This document shows positions 1 to 62,776 of a DNA stretch of 64,000 bases, piece by piece; position 1 is the first letter of the stretch, and every line of letters begins with the position of its first letter. The position numbers were made by a program, and so were the translations under genes. Below the pieces are notes generated by a model that saw only the letters and a program-made list of their open reading frames with translations, was not told the origin of the DNA and did not search any database. The stretch is from Vicugna vicugna (taxonomy: Eukaryota), in contig MU057416.1 of the NCBI GenBank assembly GCA_013265495.1, forward strand, positions 1,110,545 through 1,174,544. Reading direction: 5' to 3'.

Positions 1-369
1 AAGTTTCAGGAGACCAGTAAACCAGCTTCTCTTTGCCCTCGGGCTCTCTCGGCCTGGTGGTGGAGACTTTCTGGAGGGGATAAAAGTGTCTAAGCTTCCT
101 CTGGGGCCGAAAAGTACACACGTGCTACGAGAAATGTGTTCTGGTCTCTCGAAAGCACCAAGTAGTCATGGAGGAGGCCTTCGAAATTGTTTGCAAGGAT
201 GTGGACGGGCAAGCGTCGTGCGAGGCTGGCTGGGTGGTGCGAGGCTTCCCACCCGGGCGCGCGGGAGGCGAGGGTCTTCCACGCTGTGCTTCCGGGGATC
301 TGTGTTTGCTGAGCCCAGGAAACTCGAACCTGTCCTCAAAGTCTTGACACTTTGTGCCTTTGCAGACTG

Positions 370-1630
370 CACGCGGGAAGTGCGCGGGGCCGACCGACAC
401 CCCCCCCCCAGGTCAGGTCAAGGTCAGGCTGTTCCAGGCGCGCGCTCGGGAGCGCGGCGCGGAGGCGCGGGAAGGCGGAGGCGGGAGAGCAAGGCAGTGA
501 CCTCCTCGCGGGCGGGGAGGCCCAGATCTCCTCAGCCCCTGCCCGCGGGTGGATGGGGCGCACGGCCCGTGACGCTGAGCCCGGATAAAATATGCCAGAA
601 CTGTCTTCTTGGGCTCATCAAGGCTGCGGGAGCCTCCCCAAGCCATCATCCTTTGTAATTGCAACCGTCAATCAACGCTTTAAGACAAAGTCAGAGCCGG
701 GAAGGACGAGCCTGGAGACCAGCCTCGTAGGAAAGAAGGTGGGGGCGTGGGGGACGTGGCGGGGAAAGGGAGCGAAGTTTGCCAGGGCTTGGCAGGAGAA
801 CAGGGAGGAAACTGAGGAGGCGCACGGCAGCCGAAGCCAGAGCTGCCTCTCCGGGCCCCCCGGGTTCCCGTCTCCGGCCCCCACCTGTTACACTTCCCGC
901 AGCTGGGGTGGATTCTTCAGTGTGCCTCCCCTAAGAGGCGGTGGGTGAGACGGCCCCGCCGAGGATGGGAGGCGTCGGCCCGCCTGCGGGGGCTTTATCA
1001 TTCCAAGGCGGTGGGTGTATCTTTCTGGGAGTGCAGACCACCGCCAGCATCGACGTTTCAGCCACACAGACCCTGCTCCCCCACCCCCATCTCATCTGCT
1101 TCCCCTCCTGGGGTCCGCTTGGCCCCCCTACCACGTGCTGCGGCCTCTGCCACCTACAACCATCCCCAGGCGACCGACCCGGCCCCGCGGCGGGCTCGGG
1201 CACCTCCGCCGCCGCCACCCTTCCCCGAGGGTGTTCTTGGGAGCCCAGCCCACCCCGGGTCACAGGGCTCCAGTGCGGAAAGGGTGCGCTTGGCCGAGGG
1301 CGGTAACGAGCGCGCGTCCGAAGCCAGGTACCGCCGCCCCTTCCTCGGCCTCTGCCCCAGGGTTGCGGACTCCGCTGCTCCCCTAAACCCCACGCGGAGC
1401 GCCCGGGGAAAGTGGACTGGACCCTCGGGTCTCTCCTGTGGGAGATTTCGGTGGACGAGGCGGGGTTTCGAGATACCCCGAGGGGATCCGGATGGCTGTG
1501 GCCCTCGGGAGCCCTTCCGTTCCTGGAACTGGAGGCCTGCAGCACCGAGGGCTCCATTTCTAAGCAGAGGAGGCTTTCTCTCGGCGTGAGACCTCCGCAA
1601 TCTCGGCGCCTGGAACAGGGCTCGCATCTT
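370..1630. promoter_or_regulatory. CpG island upstream of exon 2 (intron 1)
   Basis: Very GC- and CpG-dense; GC boxes; tandem AGGTCA half-sites at 410-426. Confidence 0.7.
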
Positions 1631-3986
1631 ACTAAGCAGGGCCGCCTGCCTGCACTGGCGCTTCAAAGCAGGCAGAAAGCTTCGGACCTTTCCTCTGAGT
1701 CAACTGTGGGTTCTTTTAAAAAGGGCGGGTTTTTAAAACATTGACCCCAACCCCTTTTCTCCCCCGTTGCCGCTGTCTTTTGTGAGGAAGCCACATGGAT
1801 GCCAGCTAGTCCTTTATCACCATCCCTCCAGGTCTTTGGGGGTCTGATGGGAAGGCAGACTGGCCTAGAATGAAGACACCAGTGTGGCTTAAACAGGTCC
1901 CTTCTGGGGTTGAGGCCGGGTTATGAACGTGATCACGAAGTTTGCCACCAGCCAAGTCAGGCTCAGCCTCGAGAGCCGGTAAAATGTGTGCCACACTGCA
2001 ATTAGGGGGTCCTGGCAGTCCCTGTGTCTACTTCTGACTCTCCTTAACCTCTTCCTCCTGCTCTACCAGCCAGAGGGCCTTCTCTCCCCAACCGAGGGCA
2101 GCACCGGGCCCCTGAGCTGTCTGCCTGGGGCTGGGAAGGCGCCCATAGGCTCCTTGATTACCGTGGGAGGGGGTGGTTCTTACATGAAGGCTTTGTAATC
2201 AACTTATTCCCAAAGTTCATCTGAACCCACAAGTCAAGCCCTGTGAGCACTTATTTGAGCTCCGAGACTTACTCCCTTTCTGAACTTAATTCACGAAGAT
2301 ACTGAAAACTAGGAACACTGAGAATAAATGAATGTTGCTTGATACTGTCACCAACATCTGAGCATCTTAAGGGCCACTAATCTGGGCAAACTCAGCCCCC
2401 TCCTCTTCACAAACTAATGGGCAGCCAACCCACCAAGTTGAGATGTTTTCATGAAACCTGCAAATGCTACTAAAACAGATTTTTAAAAGTTTAAATTTGA
2501 ACTTGGATTCTGAATACTAGATATTGAAGAGCAAAGTAACAACCAGTTTAGAGAGGCAGCAGTGTGGCCAGGCACGGGTAGAGGAGGAACTCCTTCCGGA
2601 TAAAACCATAGGTTAGGCATGACAATGATCGGAGTATTTTTCAGTTCATCAAATACTGGACCCGGCAGTTTGAATGTGTGATCTCTACGCCATTCAAATA
2701 GAATAAATTCAGAGCTTTTGAGATTCAAATTCAGCCCCTTGTGGGTGGACTCTGATAATCGCCAGGCCGCACAGCAGACACTGAATATAAGGCATTTCGC
2801 GTGCAGTCGGGAGGCTGGGGAGATGTTTTCATCTTGCTGGGATGAGATCTGAAAACTTAGAAGGTGGGGCTGCGCTGGTGGCTGAAAAGCTTGCATAACA
2901 GATGGTTCTTTAAAACTTTTTAAAGTGCCGGCCCTCTGGGCCTCATGTGGCTGGTCCCACCCAAGAGACCAGAATGAAAAAAGGAAAGCCCAGATGCATC
3001 TCCGCATTCTAAATGAAAACGCAGTTCACGCAAACTTAGGAAGTCCGCCGCCAAGATAATCTTGGGCTCGAGGAAGGGGATGGTGCATATAAGTGAGCCC
3101 AGGCACTGGGGAAGGGTGGGGAAACGGGGTTAGCTGTTCCAATTCCCAACAAGTGAGGGAACTTGCGGCCACACGGCTGCCCCCGTACCCCCCGGGGGAG
3201 CAGGTGAGCCGCGCTTCGAGCTCGGCCGCTCCCGGGGTCGCGGGGGCTGAGTGCCGAGAGGAGTGAGGTGGAGACACCCTTGAGAGCAGGTTAGCTCCTC
3301 TTTTCTAGGTTGTTTTAATGTGTGTTTAACTCTTCGTGCTGCCCCTCACCGACGCACACCGGGGGCGCGCCCATCCCCACTCCCACCCCCGTCCCGCTGG
3401 CTTCCCCTGCGCGAGCCGCAGTCTCCGCACCAGCTTCCCCTCCTTGGCCGCCGCGTTCAGACAGAGGTCGCCTCTCGCCCGCTGTAAGCCCCGCCGCGCT
3501 CGCATCCCCCGCCCCGGGCCAGAGAGGGGTGGGAGGGGGCGAGGCGGGGTGAAGAGGTTGGGGCAGGCGAGGGGACCGGAGCCTGCGCCTCGTCCTCATT
3601 GGCTGGCGTCTGGTGTCCGACCCGAGCCCGGAACCCGCGTCCCCATTCACTGTCATCACCCCTCTTCCCAGCCTTCCCCTTACCCCGGCCCTACTTACCT
3701 CCCTTCTCCTCCTCTTCCTCCCCCTTCCTCCCCGGGCGCCCTCGGAGCTGGAGAGGACTGCTCTCCGTCAGGCGCCGGCAGACGAAGCAGCAGAGGGAGG
3801 CTGGAACTTCTTAACTCAGCGCTTGCAGAGAGCGGAGGGAAGCGGAGACGGGGAAGGGGCGGAGAGGAGAGTGAGGCCAGAGAGCGCGCGAGACTGAGAC
3901 CCTGCCGCTTCCGAGCGGAGCGCGGCGGAGGGAGGGCGGGGGTCGCCCGCGCCGAGCCGTCCGGGAGCAGCGGCACCGGCACCGCC

Positions 3987-4006
3987 GCGGCGGCGGCGGC
4001 GGCGGC
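3987..4006 (+). repeat. (GCG)6 trinucleotide repeat
   Basis: gcggcggcggcggcggcggc read directly. Confidence 0.9.
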
Positions 4007-4366
4007 AGGACAGCAGCTCGACCGCCGCCTCCTCTGCGCGCCGGGAGCCCGGCCGTCCGCGCATCCGCGCCCCGGGCAGCTGCGGCCTCGCCGAGCCCGA
4101 CCTTGGCGCCCGGACGCGGTCTTCGCTCTCAGCCCGCTTCCTCCTCCTCCTCGCCGCGGCTTGGGCGCTGCGAGACTGGACGGGACTCGGGGTCTTGAGC
4201 GCAGCCCCGGAGGCGGCGGAGGCGCGCTCCAGAGAGCGGGCGAGGGAGCAGCCACCCGGCCGCCCCCTCCTTCTTCCCTCCGGAGTTGAATCTGTGCCGC
4301 CCGTGTCCGGGTGCTGGGCTTCCGGACCGACACGGACCCCCTACCCCGGCCCGCGGCCGCCTTGTC

Positions 4367-4448
4367 ATGCTGCCCAAAGTGGAGACGGAAGCCCTGGGAC
4401 TGGCTCGGTCGCATGGGGAACAGGGGCAGATGCCGGAAAACATGCAAG
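4367..4448 (+). CDS. NR5A2: NR5A2 exon-2-derived coding segment, MLPKVETEALGLARSHGEQGQMPENMQ (start of the shorter ~501-aa isoform type; homology to human exon 2 extends back to 4311)
   Basis: The translation GAGLPDRHG..ARGRLVMLPKVETEALGLARSHGEQGQMPENMQ matches the LRH-1 N-terminus. Donor AAG|GTAAGG at 4448/4449 is phase 1 and joins exon 3 in frame (G+TG=Val). There is an in-frame TGA upstream at 4196-4198. Confidence 0.9.
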
Positions 4449-5259
4449 GTAAGGAGGCGCTCGCGGCGCTCGCGTCCCGCGGCTCTCCCGCCCCGGGCTT
4501 ACCCTGCGGGCTGCAGCCGCCCGTTCCGCGCGGGGCTGGACGCTTGCCGCTGCGGGACTGCGAGGCAGTGCGCGCGCGGGCGGCAGCCCCCCTCCCCAGA
4601 GGTAGGCATAAAAGTTTATGGCTCTTGAACAATGCTGGGTGGAGATTTTCCAAGCAATGCCTAATTGGCCGCTTCTAATTAAGAGAGACTTTGAGCTTTT
4701 TAGATACCAGAGCGGGGTAGTTTCAGGCTAGAGATGCTTTATAATAGTAAGAGCATTCGGAGAAATGGACTGTCTCCCTGGAAACCCGAGCAGGTTCCCC
4801 ATCGTTGGAACCGGTGGGAGCTGGAACCAGTGCTCTTGAGTGGAGGAGGGACCCTCTACCTCGGGGAAAGCTGGCTAAGCCGTGTTAGAACTGGTGGGCA
4901 TCCCAAAGCCCAGGCGCGCACTGGGAACCGGCTCCAGTTGGCACCACTTGATACCCTCAGGAAGGACTGAAGACCAGAGTTACCCCCAGCCCATCCTGCG
5001 GCTGGGCCCTGCGCGGTGAGTGCAGGGCGGGGGCGCCGTTTTGCTCCATTCCTCTCCTGTCTGAGAGCTGGGGATCTGAAGTCCGATTTGTTTTTCCCAG
5101 CTCTCGATTGCTAACGGGAACAACAACAAAAGCAAATCCCTCAGGCTAGATTTTCGCCCGCATAACAAAATAAGAGACTCTAGATCTGGGCCTCTTAAGC
5201 CTTTCAGAAGTTTATCGCAGTTGCTCTGGGCCGGGGTGGGAACAATGCTAGGAAAAGTC

Positions 5260-6450
5260 ACCGGCGCTCTTCCCTCCTCACCCCTTCCAGCGCGCAGGAT
5301 GTGCGGGCAGGCGGGCCTCTGATCCCGGAACGCTTCCTGCCATCCCCTTGAGCGAACTTGAAAGGGCCGGGGAGGCGTGGAGAGCAGAGTTCAGGTCTGG
5401 TGCACGCGGGGGCAGTGCGGGAGAGGCGGTGCGCCCGCGGCGCTGGGCCGGGGCCTGAGGTCGCCCGGCTGCACAGGGCAGAGGGGGCGGCGGGAAGGCG
5501 TGCGTCCTGCGGGTGGGACTCCTCTCGGGACCCGGAGTCTCTCCAAGCCTCTAGGGAGGGCCGTGCAAGTCCTCTGGGGCCGAGGCCCGAGTCTAACTCG
5601 TGGGTTGGCTGCCGGGGGAACCCGGTTGACCCAAAGAGGCTTTTCCGCTCTCACCTGGGACTGCGCGAAAGGGAGCCTAGGGGACGCGGAGCTGCAACGG
5701 GACCCTCTTTGGACAAGTGCCGAGAAAGCCTCTCCTTTGGGCTCCCTTGAGGCCGGCGAGATCCTTGGTTCCAAAGGAAAGTTTCTCCTTACAGCGCGCG
5801 CGTTTCTGAGCGACTCGGGGAAAAAACGTGCGGGAGAAGCTGGAGCAGGAGGTGGGAGAGGCCAGAGTAAGGGTCTGGGGGAAGGTGGGAGGGAAATGCC
5901 AGTGCAGTATTTTTTTCGTAAAATCCGAGAGGAGTGTTGTTGACACCACCTACCGCCCCAAAGCAGAACGGTGGCTTTCCCTGGTGCCCAGGGCTCGGAG
6001 AAGCCGCCGGCCGCTTGCTCAGGCGAGGGTGGGAAGCGGCGTGGGAAGCGCCCAGGCGCTGCTTCCTCCAGGCCACGCAGCTTGTGGCTCGAGAGGAGCC
6101 CCTGGGGACGGGGACCCCACTCCCAAGCTCCTGGGTTCCAGGACAGTCGGGGGAACTTCTCCGCGTGCTGCTGCGGCCTTAGCTTTCCAAGGCCGCACGG
6201 TCTCCTCTACTGTCTCAATCCCCTACGGATTCGGTTCCCCAAACGCTGACTTGGGTTATAGCCCCTGGGAGACAGCAGGACGCCCCAGTCTCGCACAGTG
6301 GCGTCGGCGTCGGCGTCTGTCTTTGAATTTTCCAAGAGGGTCCCCAGCCTCGGTCTCTTCAGTGTTGGATCCCCGAGGCACGCACGGCTTCCCTGTGAAC
6401 GGTCGCCCCTGTGGACCCCTCGGGTGCGGAGTTAGAGCTGACTTCGTTGG
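5260..6450. promoter_or_regulatory. CpG-rich island in intron 2
   Basis: High GC and CpG density by inspection. Confidence 0.55.
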
Positions 6451-6929
6451 GGAAAGGGGGAGGTAGGAAAGAACACTTAGTCAAGCACACTTTTTTCCTG
6501 TCCCTAAAATGTGCTTCAAGACAACAGTCACAGCTTTAGGAGGGATGGGGTTACAAACTTCTGGAACCCTCAGCCTCTCCCAAGTCCCCAGGTTCCCCGA
6601 ACCCCATCTCGGACCCCTCAGGGCTGGGACTCGGGCAGGCATCTCTTTATTTCTATTTCACGGAGCCCAGGGGCCTGCCTCTGCTGGAACATCTTTTCCC
6701 AGGAGCTCTCCACCTCCACCCCCCGACCCTTGAATCCCACAACTCTGGCTCACTCACTCCGATTTCTGCCCCAGCCCAGGGCTCCGTGTCTCCGGGAGAG
6801 CTGGCCCCACTCTGCGGGCCAGGGCTGGGCCCTCAGCCGAGGAGCGCTGCAAGTGACCCCCACCCCGAAGGCCGTGTCCAGAGGCCCCCATAATCCGTAA
6901 AGAAAACCTTTAGCAAGGAAATCGTCGGC

Positions 6930-7300
6930 AAGGCAGCCAATGTGGTGACAGAGTGGCCGGGTACTTTGGGGATGGAGTGGGGGCTCTTTCTCCCTTTCCT
7001 TTTCGGTAAACAAATCAGAGGAAACTTCTGCCCGGCCCTGGGCTTCCCCCATCCCCCCGCCCCGCCCCCCGCAAACGCCACTGATTAACTTAAAACAAAC
7101 TTGACTTGGCGTTTGTGCGCCTGTGTGTAGCCGAAAGTTGAGCAAGGGGCGAGAGGCGACTGCGCCCCGGAGTTTCACGGAGGTGCCCGGAGGGTTCGGG
7201 CGGCGGCCGGGCTGCGCGGATCTGTGCCGTCCGACCCCGCCGCGCGCGCTCCGAGCTCTGACCCGCGTGGACCGAGTCTCTGGGAGGCACCAGATCAGGT
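6930..7300 (+). promoter_or_regulatory. Candidate internal promoter and alternative non-coding first exon in intron 2
   Basis: CCAAT 6937-6941, GTAAACAAA 7006-7014, GC boxes 7053-7072, TAAAACAAA 7091-7099, then CpG-rich sequence and donor-like CAG|GTATTA at 7298/7299. Confidence 0.5.
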
Positions 7301-8235
7301 ATTATCTGGGGTCTCCTGGCCACGGCTCCTCCTGGGCAGTTCATCCGAACTTGAGCTGCGAAGACGCCTTCGAGGGGCTGTGTCCGGAGGAAGGCGGTTA
7401 CCCGATCCCTGCAGGGAGCCGCGCGCAGCCGCGGCCTGATTTCTGTTTAACTTGAACAGGGCGAACTCAAGGTGTTTATATTTTGCAATGATGATCAGAA
7501 ACATGTGAAGTTCATTAAGGAACTTCAATACTTTGCGAGGAAACCAAACCCTCATGTGTATCTTTTTTTTTCTTTTCCTTTTGTTTTTGTTTGTTTGTTT
7601 TCCGGCCGGGCATCCTCCCCTTTTCCTTTTTATTTTTACAGATTTTCAAAAGTGTGGAGATGAAAGTACTCAGGAGCCCTATCAATACGGAACTGAATGT
7701 TTCGATTAATCTAATCTGAACGTTGGGAGCTGCAGGCTGGGGTTGCAGGGGGCCGCAGAGAAGCAGGTTTTGGGGCTTCCATTCCTCCATCAAGTGTTTG
7801 CAAATCTGTGTTGCTATCCCCAGGGCATCCTTAGAGCTGGAGCCAGCTCACCTCAAGAGTGGGAGGAGAACGCCTGTGTTCCTTTCTCTCCCTTAGGCAA
7901 AGGTGATGTTTTGGAACTTGAGCATGGAGGAGCTTTAAAGGGAATTCTAAGTTGGTTCTTTATGCAATTCATGTTTCTATTCTGATTTGTTGCTCTATAG
8001 GGTTAGGAGGCTTGTGTTCGACGGGTCAGCTTAAAAGATTTTTAACAATAGAAACTGGAATTATTTTAAAATTAAAATAATAGAAAGTGCATGTTCATTG
8101 ATGCCCAAAGATGTTTTACTTTCACTGTGTAAGAATAGCTCTCTTCCGTACACTTGGGTCAAACATTTTTATTTTATATTTTACCTGGTGATGTTTGCCC
8201 CCCAATGACCACAATACTTCTGATTGCAGGATTAA

Positions 8236-8451
<216 letters not shown>

Positions 8452-9944
8452 TAAACTGTTGGGTTACTTCTTACAGTTAAATGTAGGCTGTCTTTTTTGG
8501 ACTCAATTAAAAATGAGAGAGGGAGAGAGTTAGTCTCAGGGAGATGATTCTTAGAAATATGTGTCTGATTTAATTCCCAAGGCAAAGAAATTTATGCTGT
8601 TTAGAAAACTTTGCCAGTCTCATGGCTTTAAAATAGTTTATTGTGGTAAAGTGATGTAGCTGTAGAAAGACTTCTATTGCTAACAGTCCAAAATATTGAT
8701 TTTGCTTGACTTATATATATTTAAAGCATCGTTGTTCTCAAGGGGGAGGATGACAAAGTATTTCCCAAATACATTTTAACTTCAGAGTCTTCTGTGCTGC
8801 ACGTCTAAACATTTTTTATCCACGGACATAAAAGTCTAAATTCTCAACTGCGGGATTTCATCCTGATTTATTCCAAAAATAATTTTAAGATGTTTTGAAA
8901 TTTATATCACAAAGAATAAGAAACCAGACCTTAAGTTTATAAAAATAGGTTTCATAAGTATATTACATGACCTGTTTAAATGCAAGAAATTGTAATGTGT
9001 CACATGTACTATATTGCCACTAACAATGTCAACTATACATTAAGGATTTATCTCAGGCCTTTTTTGTATATTCCTGGTAAACTTGATACTCCCTATTGTT
9101 TAACATTTTTAAAAGTAGAAAACTCAGTACAATTACTTAAACCACTGCCAGGAAAATCCCCTTTTTCTCTATAACAAAGTAAGATGGTTTCACTTTGTGG
9201 CCAGTAGGACAAATGTAAAGAAAACACCATCCAACTTGTTACTATGTTATAAAGCTACAGATTTTATATTTGATTAATTCTTTTGCATGAAATATAAGGA
9301 AGGCATACACTCTGCTAAATTTCAACTCTCTGCTATACATTATTTTTTCTTTCCCAATTAGTTGCACCTTTTTTTGTTTTTTTACACAGTTCCCCAACTT
9401 GAATGTATTCCAGTGGAATTACAAATATTTTCCCGTTTTATTCTTTAAATCCTTTTGCTTTTCACTATCTAATGTTGACATTTATTTTAAAAAATCTGAG
9501 GTTTTTGCTATTCCATTTTTCCACTGGTATTTTACAGTAGTTTGCCACTGAACTCGTATCGGGCTGCTTAAAAACAATGCAGCTCTCTAAGAGTGCTTCA
9601 CCTGGAATAGGAAGGTTAATAGGAAAACTTTTTTTTTTCCAAAAAAATTACTGGTCAACATAGAAAGTGTTTTTCTCTGAATGTTGATATGAAATGCTGT
9701 GTAGCGAAATCTCCCCAAGATTTGATGTGATTCTTGAGAAACAGAACTCTGATGCCAGGAAAACCTCCAGCACGGCCTGGCGCTGCTTGAGAGGGCTGAT
9801 CTTGTTAGAAGTGAAACACACCACAGAACCACAGAAGGTCTCAAATGGCGCAATGAAAAGATTTACTGGTGATTTCCTTAAAATGAAACAATAGAAGAGA
9901 CGGGTGCTAGGTTTGTAACATGTCTCGCTGTTTTTCTCTTATAG

Positions 9945-10086
9945 GGCTTTTTTAAGCGAACCGTCCAAAACAATAAAAGGTACACGTGTATAGAAAACCA
10001 GAACTGCCAAATTGACAAAACACAGAGAAAACGTTGTCCTTACTGTCGATTTCAAAAATGTCTAAGTGTTGGAATGAAGCTAGAAG
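9945..10086 (+). CDS. NR5A2: NR5A2 exon 4: second zinc finger ([47 protein letters not shown])
   Basis: Translated by hand (absent from the ORF track). Acceptor tttttctcttatag|GGC and donor GAAG|gtaagt; 142 nt; phases fit both neighbours. Confidence 0.97.
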
Positions 10087-12135
10087 GTAAGTTTCTTCTA
10101 AAGACTACTGCCTGTTAAGTCTCCAAGGACACAGGATTTAAAACAACACTGTACTTATAACATGGTAACAGTATTTTTCTAGTCTTTTAACACTATTGAC
10201 AGGAATGTAAGATCATTTTATGTTTTGTCAGCAGAATAGCCTGAGTTTCATTTAAACACTGGTGAAATCTACTAGGAAAAAAATTGTTAATACCAGGCTT
10301 TCCCCTCCCCCACCTCTGTTTTGGTTTGAGGGGCAGATATATTTATTAGGTTAGATGAAAGGACAGGTTAAATGAAAGCACGACCAAAGTGATTCAACTG
10401 AGAACAAATACAAATAATTTGTGAAAATATTTTTAAAAATCCTTTAAGTCTCCAGAGCAGGACGCCCTGGTAACAGTGTGTTTTTAATCCTTTTACAAGA
10501 GTGCGCCTGTCATAATTGTAACTACTAAGATTCATGACTCCAGAGCAAGAATTAAAGCTTTTAATTATAAAAAAAGGAGTTTCTCATGTAGAGTATCAAT
10601 TTTGATAGTGTGGAAAAGCACGTTTCTTTAAGATGATGACTGAGTCTGCAAAATAAAAAAAATGTGAGAAGCCAGAAACGTGAAAAATAATGAACTATTA
10701 AATCGGTAGTGTTGGTTTGACAAGAATGGTTCCTCAAAAGTCACATTAAACTTTATGTTGAAAAAGTAGACCCTGCATTTACGACGTACAGAAAGTTAAC
10801 AGGTGACCGCTGTAAATAATTTGTCGTTCGTGGACTATCATGGTGTGTTGCTGTTTTTCAGCCTCTGACCTACTGACTTTCCAAAGATTAAATATATACT
10901 GCAAAGAAAGTAGTAGGAAGGGGCACGTATCACCAACGTGCACCAGATGCACAGTGCATGCTATTCGATGAATGAGGCACAAGCTAGTTGTCTGGGGCTT
11001 TTCTGTTTGTGTGGCACTCAGCCTTGAAAGAAACACTCAAAAAGTTTCAAATAAACCTGCTGCATTGCTGATAGACTGCTTCCCAGAGAAGTAGCCACTT
11101 TGGTTATCAAGAAGACTGTTAAGTCAGTGTTGCTTTTAAGACAAGACTGAGAAAGGAATTAATTGATGCTTATTAATTTATTACCAATCCCTGTATTATT
11201 TTCCAAACTGCAAAGCAGTGTGGTACATGCTTACTCTAGTAGGAGACTCAGAAGATAAGCATATGATGTCATTTGAGTCTTTTTTTTTTTTCAACAGTAC
11301 ACTTTCTTAACTATGTCACTTGTGGTGGTGCATACTTTGACCTCCTTGACAGGGATATGAAACAATTGCTCATTCAATAAATTATCATCCAGATGAAAAA
11401 CTCTATTGTCTTGTGCAGTATTCTGGATACCCTTCACAATAAATTTTTAATGTGATACTGATCCTAAGATAAAAAGTTCAAAAACTTCACCTCCAGTAAT
11501 TTAAACATATCACAGGCTCTCAGGGGTCTCTGGCTCCTGTCTCATTGCCATTGGCCACTATGCTAACTAAATTACGAGACATGGCCCCACATGCCAGACC
11601 GTGTTGAGATGGTGGGCCGTTTTGACAGCTTCTGAAATGAATCTGCTTTAAATTCTGTCCAGTTCCACTAGAATTAAAAACAGTAACTGGTAGGTCTCAG
11701 ATGTGTGCTCACAGAGTCCAGTTGAGGGTGATTTTCTAAGAGCGTGTGCCCAGCCCTTCTGCAGTGAGTGAGGGAGATGTTCACAGGCACAACAGAACCC
11801 AGAAACAGGGTATTTGACTCTGCTCTGTTCTCCCTTTTAGCAGTGTGAGTTTCCATACAGAGAATCACAACACAGCTGGCATAATACTTGATACTTTATC
11901 AGTACAAAACCTCCCCTGTGTGTATCAATAGTTAAGAAATCTCGTCAGTTCACCAAAGGGTTAATGTCCCTTTGTATCCAAAATATTTTTTTAATGACAA
12001 ACACACTTGGAGGAAAGAATTCATAAATAAAGAGGACATGGCTTTTTTGGGGAATCTTTGTGGGTTATTGTAATGAAAACAACCACCCACCAACCACTTC
12101 TGATCAATTTTCAGCCTTTCTAAATATCTCGGGAT

Positions 12136-12386
12136 GGGGGGGTGTATAGCTCAGTGGTAGAGGGTGTGCTTCGCATGCACGAGGTCCTGGGTTCAGTCCC
12201 CGTATCTCCATTTAAAAATAAACAGACCTAATGACCTCCCCTCAAATAAATAAATAAAATTTAAAATAAATAAATACAACTAATTACCTAATTAATAATA
12301 AATGAACCTAATTACCTTCCCCTAAAACAAAAAAAAGCAAACTTCCACCCAAATAAAAGAAGTTTAAAAAAATTAAACAGAATAAA
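12136..12386 (+). mobile_element. tRNA-derived SINE (camelid Vic-1-like)
   Basis: A box tagctcagtggtagag, B box ggttcagtccc, then an AT-rich tail with repeated acctaattacc. Confidence 0.85.
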
Positions 12387-12451
12387 GATCTGGAGAATGA
12401 TAATGATCAACCTCTTACTTACCCCCTCAATTCCTGTTTCTGCCCCGACAG

Positions 12452-13098
12452 CGGTCAGGGCCGACCGAATGCGCGGCGGCAGGAATAAGTTTGGGCCCAT
12501 GTACAAGAGGGACAGAGCCCTGAAGCAGCAGAAAAAGGCCCTCATCCGAGCCAACGGACTCAAGCTGGAAGCCATGTCCCAGGTGATCCAAGCTATGCCC
12601 TCGGAGCTGGGCATCTCGTCTGCGATCCAGAACATCCACTCGGCCTCCAAAGGCCTGCCTCTGAGCCACGCTGCCTTGCCTCCCACAGACTTCGACAGGA
12701 GCCCCTTCGTCACGTCGCCCATCAGCATGACCATGCCGCCGCACGGCAGCCTGCAGGGCTACCCGCCGTACGGCCACTTCCCCAGCCGGGCCATCAAGTC
12801 CGAGTACCCCGACCCCTACGGCAGCTCGCCCGAGTCCGTGCTGGGCTACTCCTACGTGGACGGCTACCAGACCAGCTCCCCGGCCAGCGTCCCGCACCTC
12901 ATCCTGGAGCTGCTCAAGTGCGAGCCCGAGGAGCCCCAGGTCCAGGCCAAGATCGCAGCCTACCTGCAGCAGGAGCAGGCGGGCCGCGGCAGGCACGAGC
13001 GGCTCAGCACGTTCGGCCTCATGTGCAAGATGGCCGACCAGACGCTCTTCACCATCGTGGAGTGGGCCCGCAGCAGCGTCTTCTTCCGGGAGCTCAAG
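12452..13098 (+). CDS. NR5A2: NR5A2 exon 5: Ftz-F1 box, hinge (IKSE SUMO motif) and first LBD helices
   Basis: [29 protein letters not shown]...[24 protein letters not shown]. Acceptor ccccgacag|CG and donor AAG|gtacgt; 647 nt. Confidence 0.97.
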
Positions 13099-14499
13099 GT
13101 ACGTGCGCCGCGGGCGCCTGCGCCTGCGCCGTGGGCCCCGCGCCTGCGTCGAGGGCGCCGCGCCTGCGCCGCGGGGTTCGGCCGTGGACCTGAAAACCCA
13201 CTTTCCTTCCTTTCCTTCGTGTGATGTCTTGCGCCCTTGACCTCAGGACCGCGGCAGCCTCACTTTCTGGGGCTTTTATCTACAGAGTTCTCCATGTGGG
13301 GGTGTGGCGTTAAGTGTAAAATGGAGGAAACTGAGTAGGTTGTTTTTTTCTGAATAGCCGAATGTCTTTACTGACTCCCCTCACCTTGGTGGCTTATCGA
13401 AAAAATTTAAGCCAGAGTGAAACAGCACCTAGTAAACTTTAAAAAAAATACCAAATTAAGAGCTAGATTAGAGTGGTGCCAGTTTAGGAGAAAAGAATGC
13501 CAACCTTTCCTTGTGTTTAGACGCTAAAGAATGCAAATGATACCAGTGGTTAGTAGCATGCAGTCGGTATTTACTACCTGTTTATCTTGACGTTAGTTAG
13601 TTAGTTCTGGAAAGTCTTTGTTTTGGGAGCAGATTCCAATAGGATGTTTACCGTCATCGGATGGGGTGGGGGGCCGCCGGTGAGAGCTGGTCTGCCTGGC
13701 TGCGTTTTAGTGCTCATAATCTATGCCTGTCGCTGATTTTAATGGATTGGTACATTGTAAACACAGTACTTGTTTGTACAAGGATCTGTGTTTAACTCCG
13801 TAATTATTTTATTTCCTGAAACTTAAGACTGAATTAATATGGGGAAGTTATAGAGAAGTTCGGGATCTGAGAATCACCAGCAGGCCGCACTCGGTGGTCA
13901 GTGGTTTCGTTCTCGATTTTAAAAAACAAAAATGAATCCTGGATTTGATGTCGAAGTCTTACCTGTTCCCAAATCAGCTTCTTCCTTTTACTGTTGGGGG
14001 AGATGTAAGAACCCCAGAGGACAGTGCACAGCAGACTTCTGATGTGAAGGTTTCTGTTTAAAGCAGTGTGTGTGGACTGGCTGGGGACTGGAAGCCAGGT
14101 GCAAACGGAACCAGTGCTTTCCATGGCCGACTTCACTCTGCACGGAAGCAAAAGTTACCTGAATGGATCCTGATCAGTCACTAGGCCCCCACCAGCCCGC
14201 TGTGAGGCCTGCAGGCGGTGCAGCCCTGCTCTCTGGGCCTTTGTCCTGCGTGGAAGGACGGCCCACCGTGGAGATGATGGGAGGCCAGCAGAGTCTACTG
14301 CCTTAGCCGTCAGGCCAGGCCTGAGTGTGGGCGGCCTCCGGGACAGTCGGGTGCCGGTCACTGAAAACAAAGCCGACAAAGCTGTGCTGCTGCTGTTAGG
14401 CTCACAGCTTTGTCCTGGAGAGAACAGGTGCGGGATTTGAAGATGAAGGTGATCATTTTAGACCCAACCGACAGGGGACCTAAGGGTGGGAAAGCACGA

Positions 14500-18959: not shown

Positions 18960-19139
18960 ATGTATTTATTTATTTAAAAAAAAACATTTATTTTGGGTAC
19001 AATTATTGGGAGGGAGGTAGTTAGGTTTCTTTGTTTTTATTTATTTATTTATTTATGGTGGTGGAGGGACTGGGGACTGAACCCAGGACCTTGGGCGTGC
19101 TGAGCGCAGCGCTCTGTCGCTGGGCCGCTCCCCGTCCCC
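18960..19139 (-). mobile_element. Vic-1-like tRNA SINE (GC-shifted head)
   Basis: Reverse complement of the SINE head ctggggactgaacccaggacc with (TTTA)n tail. Confidence 0.8.
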
Positions 19140-19892
19140 GGGGCTCTGTGCGTTGGGCTGTGTGGCTCAGGGCTATTCGGGCGTCACACATCTGCTGTGA
19201 TGCCTTCCAGGCAGACCTGAAGCAGAAGCCAGGTCTGGCTGACGGTGTTGAGAACGAGTTGCAGTCTCTCCTTCCCCGCTCGTAGGGGTGTGGGTGTTGC
19301 CACCCTCTTGTCTGTGATTGAGTAAGGAATCCCTTTTTCCGCCTTCTAAAGCCTTCTTGGTCACTGTCCTCTGGGTGGATCGGCTCTTCTCCACCAGTAC
19401 CTGTCTGTGCTCTGGCTTGCTCTTGGGTGGGCGGCTGAAGACGGGCCCCTGGCTTGTCCCCCTCCTGTGTTCCTTGATGGAGTGTTAACGTTTGCTTTAT
19501 TCAGTGTGTGTGCATCTGCAAATGGCAGACTCAGTCTAGACGCTCACTTCCCCAAGCTTGGGTCATGGCAGCCAGATGCTGGCAGTTTCCATGCAAACAG
19601 AGCCCCCCCCCCCCGCCCCGGGGCGCCAGGATGTTGGGTCAGAGCGATGATCACAGCTTCGCAGGAGGCCTGCTGCTTCACACACCCGGTATGCTTCCTG
19701 CTCCTAGTCATGTCTTTGCTATCCGGTGGACTCTGGGGCACTCGGGGGTAGCCGGCCACACCCAAGAAGCCCAGGTTAAAGGGCTGGGCCACTGTCAGGC
19801 GTCTGAAACGACCAGGAGGGGAGGAGGGAAGTGGGCATGTTCCTCGTTCTGCTCAGGGTCAGAGAGGGGAGGTCGCCCTTCTGGATGCTCAC

Positions 19893-44170: not shown

Positions 44171-45006
44171 GGAGGAGGGCACACGTGTGTGAAATTACAA
44201 GGACCAGTGACACGTGGGGGTGGGGAGAAAGGCTAGAACAGTGGTTCCAGACTTGCATCTCACCGAAAATGTCATTTCTGAAATTCTGCTCTAGAGAGGT
44301 GCCTGGTAAAGACCAACACAATTTATTGTTCAAACCAATAGATGTGTTTATTCACGTGCATTTGGTATCTGCTCTGTAGTTAAGCAGAATTTTACAAGAC
44401 GGTTTTCTTAAGCCTGTGTAACCGTCTCCCGCTTCTCTTGGGTCTGATGGAAAGCCTCTTGGTCCCTAGTCCCCACCGAAGGATGGAGCGGGGAGAGTGG
44501 TTGTGAGCATCCGCGCGTCCAGCTCTGGGGTGAGGAGCCTGGGTGCTGGGTGGACCCCAGGCGCAGGGAAGGGAAAGGACTCCAGAAGTCAGGGTGGGTC
44601 CGTCGCTGCTGCTGAGTGACTCTGCTTCCTTTCACCCGTGTGCCAGGCAGGCTCACTTACGCCGCACAGTTACGCCTGTTATTAATGGGAAGGCACGAGG
44701 GTGGGGGGAGAATGAGTTCCGGAAACTGTTTTTAGAAATGTTCAAAACTGCAGGTCATTGCACACAATGCGGCGAGTCGGTAACAGCCCCCAGGGGAGGA
44801 CAGGCTCTGCGCCCAGGGGCCCCTGTCACTCTACCCCTGCCCTGGGTTGACACGGGGCCGGGGGGGCAGAGGGCGGGCAGGCTGTGTTCTCTGCAGCAGC
44901 TGAAGGCGTATTCGGGTGATGTCTTTCGGCTCTGACTTACCTGCCCTGTTGGGGCCGCAGGTGTTCTCTTCCTCTGCCGAGACACACCTGCCCATCAGCA
45001 CACGCG

Positions 45007-45134
45007 CCTCCTGCACCAGCGCGCACACACACACACCCCTCCTCCATCAGCTCACACCCCTCCTGCACCAGCACACACCCACACACCCCTCCTCCTGCAC
45101 CAGCGCACACACACACACACATACACACACACAC
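45007..45134. repeat. Compound minisatellite: four CTCCT(G/C)CA(C/T)CAGC units, each followed by a CA run
   Basis: Read directly. Confidence 0.8.
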
Positions 45135-46207
45135 TTCCTCTCAAACCCTGTCCTCCAGGACGACCCAGGGCGCCCTCAGCCCCGTGCCCTGCTCCCTCAC
45201 TGGGAGTCTGAGGCCCCTTCTCTTCTAACTGTCCCTCTCTCCTCTCGTCCCACCTTCTCTCACTTCTTTTGGGTCGTTCCCACCATGTCAGCATCTGCAC
45301 CGTCCCATCCACGGGGTCCCCTCATCCAAACGTGTGTGGAGGCTCCGATCCTAAAAACACAAAACCCACCCAGGCCTCCCGTCTGCCACCGTCCTGTCCT
45401 GCCTTTAACCATCACGGCCACCGTCATGGCCGTGGTCCCTGCGCCCGCAGCTCCACCTCCTCCTGGTGTCTCCTCCGCTGACGAGGTACAGGGAGATGTG
45501 AGCGGGGCCCCCACTTCCCCGTGGAAGCGGCTCAGGGACCTCAGGCATCAGTGGTGACCTCGGCCACGGCTTTCCGGGCCGCGCCTGCCCTCTTGGTTCT
45601 GCAGCCCTGAGGTTCTGGGCACCGAGGCCCGGTGGTCCCTGTGCTGGCTTCTGTCCCCAGCCCTTGCACGAGACTTCTCTCTACATCCTCTGGTCGGGCC
45701 CTTTGCTCTCACGCTTGGCCTTCCTGGCGATTGACCCCACGAAGACAGTTACGCCAGACCCCTCTCAAACTTGCCAGGGCATCTGTGTGGAGTCTGCATT
45801 GCTTGCTAGACGCATGAGTACTCATCACTGACACTGCCTCCCAGAGGTCCTCCTTCAGTGCCCCCGGTTTTTCCTTCCCTGACTCTCCTTGCTTCCTGCG
45901 GTTACCCCGGGTTTCTGGTTCGATCACGTCTCTCTCGGCCATCCGTCGGGTGTGCACAAGTTAAAACTCGTCCCAGTCACCACCATCTTCTCACGCCCCC
46001 ACCACGGCTCACTCCCCGAATCCGGGCACCCTCAACTGCCCACCTTTGCCCACTTCTTTACCCCTCCTGTCCGTGCTCTGCCCGCACCAGCGCCCTTCAC
46101 GACGGCATGAGGCGTGACTGAGCTTAAGCCCCCGCGCCGGGATCCTTCCTCAGGGGCTGGAGCTAAATTGATTCTCCCCCTTCCTGTATGACCATAGTAT
46201 TTTTCCG

Positions 46208-46465
46208 TTCTTTTTTTACTGCAGTCGAGTCAGTTTACAACGTGTGTCCATTTCTGGCGCACAGCGTCCTGTTTCAGCCACGCGTGTACAGACGCGCATT
46301 CCTTTCCACGTTCCTTTGTGCTGTAAGCTGCTGCAAGGTGCTGAGCAGAGCTCGCCGCGCTGCACTTGTCTGTCTGTTTGCTGCACGGGCCAGGACGCGG
46401 GCTCCGAGCTCCCCGCTTGTCCCTTCCCTCCCGCCATGGCCGCAGCGGTTCGTGCTCTGCTTTGG
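46208..46465 (-). mobile_element. L1 3'UTR fragment, heavily A/T>G/C shifted
   Basis: Anchors agtcagtttacaa, atttctgg, tacaga and attccttt are collinear with the L1 ends at 49387, 50211 and 55856. Confidence 0.8.
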
Positions 46466-46760
46466 CTGACGTTTAAGTGCGCGTTCCACCACCAAACCGC
46501 AAGCCGTTGGCCTGGCCCGTGAGCGTAGTCCCGGAACCGCCTGAAACCGCGTCTGTCTGACGACGCCGGGGCCGCGCGGCGGCCAGAGCCCCCGCTTTCC
46601 CCGAGCCAGCGGCGCTGCCTTCCAGGCCTCCCCCCGGCCCGGCCCCGCCCTCCCCGCCGCTGTGTCCTCCCACAGGCGCCAGCACAGAGCTTTGGGCTCA
46701 GCGGTCGCTGCGCGGAGCCCTTCCCTTTTCAGAAACCGGCTTCTGCTGACGTGAAGGTGA
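46230..46760. promoter_or_regulatory. Orphan intronic CpG island
   Basis: CpG-dense; GC boxes ggccccgccctccccgcc at about 46641-46658. Confidence 0.55.
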
Positions 46761-47944
46761 CGGCGGCTGATGCAGAGCAGAGGTCTCAGACTTTTTGATC
46801 TCAGGACCCTTTGCGCTCTTGAAAATGACCGAGGAGAGTGAGTTCTCACTCTCAGCGTTAACGTGTGGGGGTTGAACCTGAGAAGTGGCCGAAGCACAGA
46901 GTCCCCACGCGCACGTCCCATGTGCCGCAAGAGTGATGATGTCATTTTGTCCTGCGGTCCCTGCAGAGTGCTGAGAGGTGGGGAGGGGGCAGAGGGCACA
47001 CAGCATCTGAGTGTCGTGGGAGGGCAGCTTTAACCTCTTGGACCCTCTGACCACACTTGTAAAACCAGGGGCTTAAATATCACTCTCGTGGGTGTTTACT
47101 CAAGCTTGGTGCCGACGGAACGCAGTTCCCAAACCAGAACTTTCACGCCAGCAAGTCAGCGGAGACACCCAGGGGCACAAAGCCCTCCACGACCCGGGGC
47201 TGTGAAGTCGCTCCCCTGGGCAGACAGACGGGTGCGGGAGCCACGACAAGCCGGCCCTGTGTCCCCTGAACCACCACCACATCCCCCCAAACCTTGGCAC
47301 ACCCTCACTCACACCAAGGCCACCAGGGCCTCGACCCCTGTGCGCTGCCGTTAGGGAGAGCTGGGTGCCACTGCGCTCACCCTTCGGGGTCAAAGTCTGC
47401 TGAGTCTGGGCAGCAGCCACAGCTTCTGTCTGGTCGGCCCCCCAGGACAGGGAAGAGAGGGGAGAGACCGTATCCAGAAAAAGCCTGGAGCTGTTGCTTC
47501 GGTTTCATTTTGGGTTGAACTCTTGCCTTGTGATGTTGGCTGAGCTGAGGGTGGAGGGCTCTGGCGGTGGCCTGTGATGACAGCTGGTCTTCCTGAGCCC
47601 AAGCCTTGTCTGGAGTCCTAGGCGTGCGTTAGCTCCGCGGGCTCCCACCGCAAGGTGGGTGCGGGGGGCAGTGTTAGTTGGAATTTGATGGAAGCTGGAC
47701 CAAAGTCAGGCTCAAGGAGTTAAGTCCTTTACCCAAGTCCACCCTCATCTGTCGGCCACGGACGGAGCCCGGCTTTGCCTCAGGCCCGCCCGATGCCACA
47801 GCTCACTCTCTGCCATCGCGGTGTATTTGCCCATGCTGTATTCCTGTGCCCAACAAGCTGGTGTTTAAGTGTGTGCAGGAGACTGTGTGTGCACGCTCAT
47901 GCCCACCTAAAACGGGGATATCTACGTGCTGGAATTTTCTAGAA

Positions 47945-58221: not shown

Positions 58222-59766
58222 GCGGGACTGTTAAGAGGGAAGTGGAGGGGCAACAAGGGGGGTTTGAGAAGTTCGGTGTGGGCTGGAGAGGGATCCAGGC
58301 CTTTTCTTCCTCGGACTGTTTGCCGTTCACCGATCTCATGAGAAACCTGCTGGCTTGCGGGAAGGCGTCCTTTGTGACGTGTCCTGTGCTCTTTCACACG
58401 CTCGGCGGTAATATCGTCCCCGTCGTTTCCCTGATGAGGAAGCAGGTTTCTGAGACCAGGCCTTCCTCTTGCTGCAGCTGGCAACACAGGACCATGTGAG
58501 GCGGTATTGCTGACTAGCGAGAGGTTCCGACATAGACAGGGCATGACGCCCCCTCGGGGCCCCCACTGCCACCCTGCGCTGTTTGCGGACAGCACTCACG
58601 CCCGAGGAATCGACCCACAGGTAGTCGCTTGTTGTTCTCCTCTTCTCCCCACCCCCACCGCCTCTGTTTCCTAAAGAAAAGTTATCTTCAGAATCGCCAG
58701 CATCTCTTATCCGGAGACGAGGAACAAGGCGGGCATCAGATGTGCCCTGTCCTTATATTCACAGAGCTGCGTAAAACCTGTCACCCCACGCACCGTACCT
58801 GCACTCGCCAGTTTCAAGATAACGTGAAATATCACATAATCAATTATGGAAAAATGGAAATGGAACATCGGCCTGGAAGGCCTCCTCGGAGGGCGTTAAA
58901 ACAAGGAATCAGTTGCCCGAGAGGGGTGTGAAAATTACCAGACTTTACCTAGGTAGTGGGTCCAGACCTGCCAGCGCGTGCCGGGGGGGGTCAGGTGCAA
59001 GGCGTCCCCGTGTTCCTCGCCAGGTGGGGACCACCCTGCCCCCCGCAGCACAGAGGAGTCCTGGCTCTGGGCCAGGTGCCAGGGACACCGGGGAAAGCAG
59101 CCCCTGCAGGGGTGAAGGCGTCACCGTCATCACACACGCGCTTCTGCCCAGGCTGTGCTGGGACCGCGGGAGCCCAGGGAGGGCAGACAGATGGCGCTTG
59201 GCGGGGACGGGGTGATTATGTCAGAAGGAATGAGGACATGACGGCCCAAACGAACAACCAGAGAAGAAGCGCTGGTTGTGGGAAGCAGACGTGCTCACTC
59301 GCACCCGTCCGGTAATTGCTAAAGGAGCAGAGGAACCGGGCAGATTTTCTAGCCTGTCCACCTCGTTATCGCCTCGGGATGAGAGCGGCAGCGGGCAGAA
59401 GTGGAGGCGAAGAAAAGCCAGCGCCTTTCCTCCCTTCCTGGCAGCTGGTGGCACCCTCTCCACACAGACACACGCACGGAGTTAGGAGTAAGGTCCAAAA
59501 ATGGTACCCTGCACTCTTTCTGAGCAGGACACAAAAACAGACCCTTATTTGAAAGTGTGTCCTCAGCATCACAGAAGAAGGCCGGAGGAAGTCAGATTCC
59601 CATCTTACGATCTGCAGACACTTTGATGCTGGCAAACTCTGCTACCATAGGAGTTTCCGTTATGATGTATACAAAGGAGACGGGGCCGCTGAGCGCAAAC
59701 GGACAGGAAGAGCCCCTTCCTGTGATGGTTCCAGAAAACACGCTGCTTTTAATGTTCCAGGTTGCA

Positions 59767-59852
59767 GGGTGGGTGTAGCTCAGCGGCAGAGCATGTGCTT
59801 AGCGTGCACGAGGTCCTGGGTTCAATCCCCAGTACCTCCACTAAAAAAAAAA
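59767..59852 (+). mobile_element. Vic-1-like tRNA SINE (short)
   Basis: gtgtagctcagcggcagagc..gaggtcctgggttcaatccccagtacctcca plus A tail. Confidence 0.88.
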
Positions 59853-60929
59853 TGGTCAGTGTCCACTCACCTTTCCCCCGTTTCTACGTGGCCTGATTAT
59901 ATCTTAGCTCTTTCATTTGTCTGCCTGGAAAATGGGAATAATCCATTTTCTTGCTGTGTAAACAGGTTCTTAAGCTAGAATCCCCTCCAAATGTCTTTAA
60001 CCGCTCTTCCAGGAGTCTGTATTCCCCCATCCATCTTGAAATTATTTGTAATGTTTATGTGTATGGCACCTGTTACTGGGAGACCGTCTCAGAGGGTAGT
60101 TTTTAGGCTTCCCTGAAAAGAGTCCTAAATAAATAACCAAAGCTTCACATCACAGAAGAGCAGCAGGGGAACTGAATTGCCGTGGCGGAGGGTGCATTTG
60201 AAATCGGATGCCGATAGCATATGGGCCGGAACGCGGTGTAGTGCGCCCAGCGGCACCCCCCAGGCACCTGGGAGGCGCGGTCCCTGGAACGTGCTACGTG
60301 CAAGGACAGGCCAGTTGCTGGGACGTCTGGCCGCGGCGTTGTGCGGAGCGGGACGTGGGTCTCCGCCGTCTGGTGCCCACAGCCTGACTCGAAGAGCCGC
60401 ACGACAGTGGAGCCCTCCCTCTGAAGGAAAACGGGAGCCCCGGTTCTCACCAGCCCGCTGACTGATGCTGGCGAGTTTTCTCCCTGATGAGAGTAACTTC
60501 CCCAAGGTGGGAACTGTGTCTGCCTGGTTCACTGCTCCACCCCAGACCCCGGCTTACGCTCAGCCAATAAATGGCTCTTCACGTCTGCTCCCCTCACGAG
60601 TGAAATTCTCTCGGTCAGAGCAGACTTGCTGGTTCGGAGGATTTCGGATGGCCATGTTTGGGGATGGCCTGCTGACCGCAGAGCCTGAGTGCAGCTTCAA
60701 CCTCTGCAGTTGGTGTTTTGCTTCGAAACAGAATGAATAGGGTCTTCCACCTGGGAGCCTCCTGTGTGGCGTTGTGTCTTCATTTGTGTTTTGCTCCCTT
60801 TACAGAGGGATTTCCCACCCGGGAGCTCATGCCGTCCTCAGAACAAGAACTGCCTCGTGTTTTTGTTCTACTTGGTGTATGTATGAGGTAAAGCGAGATG
60901 CTTACACAAACACAGTGTAAATCAACTGT

Positions 60930-62356: not shown

Positions 62357-62776
<420 letters not shown>

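Follow-up and report, generated by a model that had tools for sequence, protein, structure and literature searches.

Why should a single exon of a deeply conserved gene be nearly saturated with G and C at its third codon positions and carry 20 changed residues, while the neighbouring exons are unchanged? The question is raised by exon 5 of NR5A2 (LRH-1), whose product regulates early development, ovarian function and the metabolism of bile acids and lipids, in a stretch of 64,000 nucleotides from Vicugna vicugna (assembly GCA_013265495.1, contig MU057416.1, positions 1,110,545 to 1,174,544 of the forward strand). The whole of this stretch is called the window below and positions are counted from its first letter. 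The unusual base composition, the direction of the amino-acid replacements, their concentration in one exon and the absence of the pattern from pig, ruminants and dolphin are plain from the comparisons given below. The best reading of the pattern is probably strong and long-lasting GC-biased gene conversion (gBGC) at a narrow recombination hotspot.

Gene structure

Exons were called from tblastn matches, using the human, horse and pig NR5A2 proteins as queries, combined with a reading of the splice sites. Exons 2–6 of NR5A2 were found in order on the plus strand of the window, with tblastn extents of approximately 4310–4447, 8257–8412, 9945–10088, 12451–13101 and 62561–62686. Exon 5 is 647 nt long, is bounded by the acceptor ...ccccgacag/CG and the donor AAG/gtacgt and contains 215 whole codons starting at 12454. 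The features that bear on the argument are as follows; GC3 is the share of codons ending in G or C, and o/e is the observed/expected ratio of CpG.

4310–4447, plus strand: NR5A2 exon 2, inside the promoter CpG-island cluster (extent of the tblastn match, not splice-defined; GC3 31/44)
8285–8403, plus strand: NR5A2 exon 3 (GC3 22/39; 0/39 residues differ from human)
9945–10086, plus strand: NR5A2 exon 4, encoding the second zinc finger and taken here for contrast (GC3 17/47; 0/47 residues differ from human)
12452–13098, plus strand: NR5A2 exon 5, with the Ftz-F1 box, the hinge and helices 1–3 of the ligand-binding domain (LBD) (canonical splice sites, open frame)
12454–12603, plus strand: first 50 codons of exon 5 (0 changes from the consensus of 80 orthologues; GC3 40/50, against 23/50 in the sauropsid copy L001)
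12688–13098, plus strand: GC3-saturated core of exon 5, 137 codons (136/137 G/C-ending)
12431–13350, strandless: CpG-island-like segment over exon 5 and the start of intron 5 (920 bp, GC 0.643, CpG o/e 0.81, 77 CpG)
13104–13175, plus strand: GC-rich 20-bp tandem repeat, 3.5 copies, in intron 5 just past the donor (Tandem Repeats Finder score 100, 84% matches)
62564–62683, plus strand: NR5A2 exon 6 (GC3 27/40; 0/40 residues differ from human)

The assignment to NR5A2 is given by the exon order, the Ftz-F1 box, the start of the LBD and the distinction from NR5A1, whose corresponding exon lies on a different contig of the same genome and is 48% identical to NR5A2 exon 5. In a protein search the NR5A2 of many mammalian species was 90–92% identical to exon 5; the exon also matched solved LRH-1 chains, the LBD constructs of which start at exon residues 134–145.

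Base composition of exon 5 and its flanks

G or C ends 198 of the 215 whole codons of exon 5 (199 of 216 if the split codon G/CG is counted), compared with 197 of 301 codons in the six other coding exons (Fisher p = 2 × 10⁻¹³). The first 78 codons, with a GC3 of 79%, hold 16 of the 17 A/T-ending codons; from 12688 onwards 136 of 137 codons end in G or C. The lone exception, GCA at 12955, could be a CpG transition from GCG. In this core (codons 79–215) the GC contents at positions 1, 2 and 3 are 0.59, 0.46 and 0.99, compared with 0.47, 0.42 and 0.52 in L001, a metagenome contig whose exon 5 protein is 100% identical to several bird and turtle NR5A2 proteins and which was used for DNA comparison. 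An earlier annotation of the same letters, made by a model and referred to here as the original prediction, had given the 199 of 216 and 136 of 137 codons, the exception at 12955 and the 17 of 47 codons of exon 4, and a recount returned the same figures. Exon 4 is, however, the lowest-GC3 exon of the gene, the others lying at 56–84% (the last exon 69/82), and the exon 4/exon 5 pair therefore overstates the difference. Exon 5 does stand out from the other exons, though by less than that pair alone suggests.

Along exon 5 and into the intron the GC content was 0.63 at 12600, 0.69–0.71 at 12700–12900, 0.81 at 13100 and 0.53 at 13200, a profile that fits a narrow focus ∼600–700 bases wide. In successive 50-base bins past the donor it was 0.86, 0.76, 0.52 and 0.54 (with 11, 9, 2 and 2 CpG) and then 0.28–0.48. 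The GC peak thus extends ∼100–200 bases into intron 5, much as had been predicted. The first 160 bases of the intron, 72 of which belong to the tandem repeat, have a GC content of 72.5% and a CpG o/e of 1.15 (28.7% GC in L001), and the next 500 bases have a GC content of 42.6%. On the other side the last 160 bases of intron 4 contain 32.5% GC (35.6% in the sauropsid copy) and intron 4 as a whole 37.6%. A dispersed repeat was rejected as the origin of the intronic GC-rich segment: 13099–13260 matched only itself in the 2.03-Gb genome of the animal and is single-copy there. Exon 5 and the start of intron 5 (12431–13350) have the sequence properties of a CpG island (at least 200 bp, GC above 50%, CpG o/e above 0.6), as do 23 other segments of at least 300 bp in the window, which has 24 in all.

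The hinge exon of NR5A1 in the same genome (L082) encodes a Pro-rich hinge and has a GC3 of 156/209; it is GC-rich but less saturated than exon 5 of NR5A2.

Amino-acid replacements

Changes of base are written with W for A/T and S for G/C, so that W>S denotes a weak-to-strong change. The majority residue was taken from 80 ungapped orthologues among 120 listed of 1114 matches, and the human protein was compared with the consensus of a set of 108 sequences, with which it agrees at 215 of the 215 exon 5 positions. In exon 5 the residue encoded in the window differs from that majority in exactly 20 of 215 columns, the first being codon 51 (12604). Compared with the human protein (P0012), no residue differs in exons 3, 4 and 6, two of 44 differ in exon 2 (S>P, codon CCC, and I>T, codon ACC), one of 49 in exon 7 and one of 82 in the last exon. 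Replacements are thus concentrated in exon 5 (20/215, against 4/301 in the six other coding exons; Fisher p = 2.5 × 10⁻⁵). All four of the replacements outside it (S>P, I>T, I>V and M>L) are W>S by the genetic code. The I>V change lies in exon 7 (L087, codon GTC) and M>L, with codon CTG, is the sole difference from human in the last coding exon (L083:1522–1767, GC3 69/82); a few changes that raise GC thus lie outside exon 5 as well.

The replacements in exon 5 are I>V (three times), M>L, M>V, K>R (twice), D>E (twice), N>S, S>G (twice), T>G (twice), N>G, M>A, Q>P, T>P, Y>F (codon 80) and S>T (codon 200). The ancestral bases at positions 1 and 2 of these codons were fixed by the ancestral residues (80–108 orthologues) and agree with those of L001. 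At these positions the 20 codons show 19 W>S changes, no S>W change, two W>W changes (Y>F and S>T) and two S>S changes; for the 17 replacements that are not cetartiodactyl-wide the W>S:S>W ratio is 16:0 (binomial p = 3 × 10⁻⁵). The net result is a gain of ten Gly/Ala/Arg/Pro residues (GARP) and a loss of ten Phe/Tyr/Met/Ile/Asn/Lys residues (FYMINK). Nine of the 20 replacements lie in the region that solved LBD structures include. Most of the replacements are conservative, and the IKSE SUMO motif and two Ser-Pro sites of the hinge are intact. The original prediction had described about 20 differences in exon 5, all after 12600 and tending towards GC-rich codons, had expected exons 3, 4 and 6 to be identical to human and had noted the intact IKSE and Ser-Pro sites. 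On all of these points it was borne out, and every example of a replacement that it quoted, SSVFF included, is present.

Comparison with sauropsid DNA and other mammals

Where the residue is unchanged relative to L001, the codons of exon 5 show 87 W>S, four S>W, 15 S>S and one W>W differences, unpolarised and measured against a sauropsid copy. In codons 79–215 all 66 of the third positions that are A/T in L001 are now G/C, and one of 71 differs in the reverse direction (pairwise). At positions 1 and 2 of the same codons the pairwise counts are 22 of 152 W to S and none of 122 S to W; some of the 22 must, by our own inference, be synonymous first-position changes or a single sauropsid-specific site. 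L001 has a GC3 of 108/215 in exon 5 and AT-rich flanks.

A scan of metagenomes for exon 5 DNA from a mammalian outgroup gave 361 stretches, 139 relatives and 80 that were kept, among which the usable whole-exon copies were only L001 (sauropsid) and L002 (teleost). No relative was found in a scan of genome contigs (eight pattern matches) or of viral contigs (391). The teleost copy (L002:264–974) has a GC3 of 179/237 and a His-rich repeat insertion in the hinge part of the exon, and the protein of the bat Pipistrellus kuhlii (P0111) has a His/Gly-rich insertion in the hinge of the same exon. To judge from these two sequences, GC-rich repeats seem to expand readily in this part of the hinge where a lineage is enriched in GC.

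Among proteins, neither a camelid NR5A2 nor any entry more than 92% identical to exon 5 was present among the 120 listed of 1114 matches or among the 85 proteins of a second search for near matches. The outgroups share a small part of the derived residues: three of 20 in pig (E51, R183 and V209), four in sheep, buffalo and dolphin and six in deer. E51, R183 and V209 are common to pig, bovids, deer and dolphin, and these three changes therefore predate the camelids. Another four, P105, V135, G177 and G179, are each also present in one or two of the cetartiodactyl groups, which leaves 13 of the 20 that occur in none.

With 20 differences the camelid exon ranks eighth among 54 named mammals. Muroid rodents have 15–23 changes with approximately no net GARP/FYMINK shift, and the shift is absent from pig, sheep, buffalo and dolphin. 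It is the direction of change that sets the camelid exon apart.

The bat parallel

The proteins closest to the camelid exon at the 20 sites are those of bats. P. kuhlii has the camelid residue at 16 of 20 sites and Phyllostomus discolor (P0059) at 11; the Pipistrellus-like entries P0268 and P0257 share 15 and 14, Cnephaeus nine and Myotis species 8–10. The same compositional shift is seen in these yangochiropteran proteins, with 43 differences in Pipistrellus (+24 GARP, −22 FYMINK), 28 in Phyllostomus (+15, −12) and 21–24 in Myotis. Saccopteryx and Hipposideros keep the ancestral protein, with three differences each. For the 17 replacements that are not cetartiodactyl-wide, the identical residue is found at 13 sites in Pipistrellus, at 14 in the named bats together and at 16 when P0268 and P0257 are included; among the proteins compared, vole-like entries alone also have the S>T change. 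The original prediction had taken the pattern to be specific to one lineage, which does not hold: Pipistrellus, Phyllostomus and Myotis have the same shift and many identical residues.

The origin of the DNA bears on how this resemblance is read. Over the 93% of the query that corresponds to the exon, the hinge exon of NR5A1 from this genome matches steroidogenic factor 1 of Camelus ferus with 100% identity, and its next-best matches, a dog entry and a narwhal entry, are at 97%. The genome is thus that of Camelus or a very close relative, in agreement with the camelid origin that the original prediction implied. In exon 2 a single residue differs from pig and 7–12 differ from bats; a dolphin entry matches it without mismatch over 34 residues. 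Since the genome is camelid, and since exons 2 and 6 are without bat-specific changes, the bat resemblance is best described as convergence, as judged from the sequences. The bats are represented here by proteins, from which their exon 5 DNA may be supposed to be GC-saturated as well.

A tentative and rather doubtful extension would have exon 5 driven to GC saturation independently in camelids and in yangochiropteran bats by a heritable PRDM9-independent hotspot that switches on in some lineages, for example at an intragenic hypomethylated element at the exon 5/intron 5 junction. The outcome would then be nearly deterministic, because only A/T-to-G/C changes that are tolerated can fix. That gBGC can create background convergence is reportedly a recognised concern. 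If the extension were true, the exon would provide a natural saturation-mutagenesis map of the tolerant positions of the LRH-1 hinge and LBD and a clear example of non-adaptive molecular convergence.

Biased gene conversion as the proposed mechanism

On the proposed reading, gBGC would have acted on a site of ∼600–700 bases whose centre lies in the 3′ two-thirds of exon 5 and which extends 100–200 bases into intron 5. Meiotic repair would resolve mismatches of A/T with G/C towards G/C, and A/T-to-G/C mutations would fix far above expectation. The third positions, nearly all of them silent, would approach saturation, and this synonymous shift would have taken place on the camelid branch. At positions 1 and 2 only those W>S changes that the protein tolerates would fix, which would leave 17–20 mostly conservative replacements towards Gly, Ala, Arg, Pro and Val. 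Two properties expected of a gBGC-accelerated exon were found: an excess of W>S among the replacements and a higher share of replaced residues than in the other coding exons.

If the cetartiodactyl ancestor had a GC3 near that of the sauropsid copy, the conversion of ∼65 of 66 sites would require, by a rough estimate, several substitutions per A/T site and, on the same premise, tens of times as much change as neutral evolution would give in the lifetime of the camelids. That expectation is drawn from general mammalian rates. A requirement of this size would favour a stable hotspot over a short-lived one.

Several observations weigh against this reading. The intronic GC peak consists largely of the 72-base tandem repeat, which slippage could have produced, and the flank is therefore weaker as evidence for point substitution; the shoulder of intron 5 outside the repeat is modest (0.52–0.54). 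GC-rich minisatellites are, for their part, classically associated with recombination hotspots. AT-richness persists in intron 4 as far as the acceptor, even though GC3 in the 78 codons that follow is already 79%. The exons other than exon 4 are already at 56–84% GC3 and the window has a GC content of 49.5%, and the GC3 of exon 5 may be partly regional or older. The comparison with L001 is unpolarised and very deep and shows asymmetry, not a date or a branch. Other cetartiodactyls have 9–12 changes in exon 5, so that the camelid excess is only about twofold. Finally, two of the replacements, Y>F and S>T, fall outside the W>S class, and the site of the latter is Ser in 80 of 80 ungapped orthologues.

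The original prediction had itself proposed gBGC. The direction of the replacements, the saturation of the third positions and a rest of the protein that is nearly unchanged speak for it; its force is reduced by an excess that is only about twofold and by the three changes that are older. Its further statement that purifying selection had been overridden goes beyond what has been demonstrated, because most of the replacements are conservative.

Alternative explanations

The alternative that survives best, though it is unlikely, is adaptive or relaxed evolution, in which selection on the LRH-1 hinge and the first LBD helices would have shifted (for instance with lipid, bile-acid or reproductive physiology) and the GC content would be incidental. 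It would be in keeping with 20 replacements at positions where the human protein equals the vertebrate consensus, nine of them within the solved part of the LBD, and with the changes of codon 80 (Y>F) and codon 200 (S>T), which do not increase GC; to these two it could still apply. It leaves unexplained the 136 of 137 third positions, the GC-rich intron flank and the 19:0 asymmetry. Moreover, the changes are mostly of a conservative kind (I>V, M>L/V, K>R and D>E), neither the SUMO motif nor the Ser-Pro sites have been lost, and bats of very different biology share many of the residues.

A slightly smaller probability is given to GC richness that was inherited, whether cetartiodactyl-wide or through a GC-rich isochore, with only the residue changes being camelid-specific. 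The sharp localization of the peak argues against it: exon 4, 2.4 kb upstream, has 17 of 47 G/C-ending codons, intron 4 is at 37.6% GC and values of 28–48% are reached within ∼250 bases past the exon. The GARP/FYMINK shift is absent from pig, sheep, buffalo and dolphin, and the sauropsid copy has a GC3 of 108/215 with AT-rich flanks. Inheritance may nonetheless cover part of the GC3, especially that of the first 78 codons (79%), given the 56–84% GC3 of the other exons (69/82 in the last), a window of 49.5% GC with its 24 CpG-island-like segments, and the three replacements of 20 that are cetartiodactyl-wide, with six shared by deer. The scanned metagenome, genome and viral contigs yielded no usable mammalian outgroup copy, which leaves this account some room.

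Selection on composition is very unlikely as the explanation. G/C-ending codons would here help a long exon between AT-rich introns to be recognised by the splicing machinery or expressed, or would stabilise the mRNA, and the step from AT-rich intron 4 into exon 5 is indeed abrupt; selection for GC at synonymous sites in mammals has reportedly been proposed in print. GC3 is only 56% and 36% in exons 3 and 4, whose intron context is the same, and neither the GC-ward replacement of conserved residues nor the GC-rich intron flank would be accounted for.

An artefact or copy (assembly error, retrocopy or conversion by the GC-rich paralogue NR5A1) is hardly credible: GC-rich stretches are error-prone in assemblies and the NR5A1 hinge exon has a GC3 of 156/209, but exon 5 has canonical splice sites, lies in order with exons 2–4 and 6 and is the single NR5A2-like exon 5 of its genome next to that of NR5A1, and 14 DNA-type sequencing runs (three organism labels, seven studies) contain 84–92% of the words sampled from 9900–13300.

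The gene context and the many runs that contain the stretch, as measured by shared words only, are the grounds on which assembly error is regarded as unlikely. A retrocopy or duplicate of exon 5 was sought in the genome of the animal and none was seen. Conversion by NR5A1 was likewise rejected: the two exons are 66.6% identical in DNA, their longest shared word (21 bases, at 12487) lies outside the saturated part and at only four of the 20 derived sites does NR5A1 have the same residue. Six further runs, five of them RNA, contain 21–39% of the words of 9900–13300, of which exons 4 and 5 make up ∼23%; these shares would fit transcripts and are not evidence of expression.

Biased gene conversion at a narrow hotspot thus probably remains the reading to be carried forward. 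With its silent sites saturated, the coding exon contains a CpG-island-like segment, and 17–20 of its residues are replaced, nine of them in the structured LBD; if the process is the one proposed, the camelid case indicates how far a neutral, recombination-linked process can reach in a conserved gene. Scans for positive selection or for convergence (for example of camels with bats) would flag exon 5 for the wrong reason. The set of fixed W>S changes, taken together with the 130 of 152 unchanged A/T bases at positions 1 and 2, may serve as a rough natural map of constraint in the hinge and helices 1–3 of LRH-1.

Other features of the window

Four adjoining CpG-island-like segments (GC 0.61–0.68, 465 CpG in total) cover the 5′ end of the gene, exon 2 included, at 31–7510. 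Further CpG-island-like segments lie deep in intron 5 at 45221–46960 (1190 bp, GC 0.61, CpG o/e 0.84), and strong negative GC skew and a CA-type microsatellite were noted near them at ∼45000–45500.

Three long open frames overlap exon 5, one on the minus strand (12427–13242, 271 aa) and two on the plus strand in frames other than that of NR5A2 (12489–13193, 234 aa, and 12731–13240, 169 aa). They were rejected as genes and are read instead as a result of GC richness, which leaves few stop codons. The frames at 59553–59978 (plus strand) and 19045–19500 (minus strand) translate to strings such as GVAQRQSMCLACTRSWVQSPVPPLKKK and look like a tRNA-derived short interspersed nuclear element (SINE) with an A-rich tail, which we take to resemble camelid or cetartiodactyl SINEs. 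No evident reverse transcriptase was found among the 61 open frames of at least 130 aa in the window.

Comparison with known systems

A published link of NR5A2 to biased gene conversion, or to positive selection in bats, was not found in the literature searched, and no publication on this exon in camel was among the listed NR5A2–camel titles. In a study of Bactrian camel iPS cells (PMC9916525), Nr5a2 appears as a reprogramming factor only.

The bats provide the nearest parallel. Exon 5 of yangochiropteran NR5A2 has the same compositional shift and many identical derived residues, and that of Pipistrellus differs from the camelid exon by its His/Gly-rich insertion.

The PRDM9-independent, CpG-island-like hotspots of Joseph et al. 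2024 (PMC11161765) are reported to be active in most placental mammals and to evolve slowly; camel, Camelus, alpaca, Vicugna, Tylopoda and bats are not mentioned in the main text of that paper. These hotspots are described as stable and tied to hypomethylated CpG-rich DNA, as the saturation of the exon would require, and the segment 12431–13350 resembles them in having the sequence properties of a CpG island, a likeness of sequence alone.

In the GC-rich parts of vertebrate exomes, as outlined in PMC6636035, GC-driven GARP/FYMINK shifts accompany faster protein divergence. Exon 5 likewise gains GARP and loses FYMINK residues (+10/−10) with rising GC; unlike the broad genomic landscapes of that work, the effect is contained within ∼650 bases of one gene, the neighbouring exons being unchanged.

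The closest model is that of the gBGC-accelerated exons, which in the account of Berglund, Pollard and Webster 2009 (PMC2631073) are marked by W>S clusters, a signal in flanking non-coding DNA and an excess of replacements, a pattern that can mimic positive selection. NR5A2 exon 5 shares with them the W>S cluster and the excess of replacements over the other exons, and its flank in intron 5 is GC-rich as well, largely through the tandem repeat; it differs in that the changes at its silent sites are unpolarised and its link to recombination is a proposed one. In contrast to the human cases of that study, its third positions are essentially saturated (136/137), which would imply a much longer or stronger episode. 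Exon 5 of camelid NR5A2 would thus be a new and unusually complete case of a process already known, and the bats offer a noteworthy convergent counterpart.

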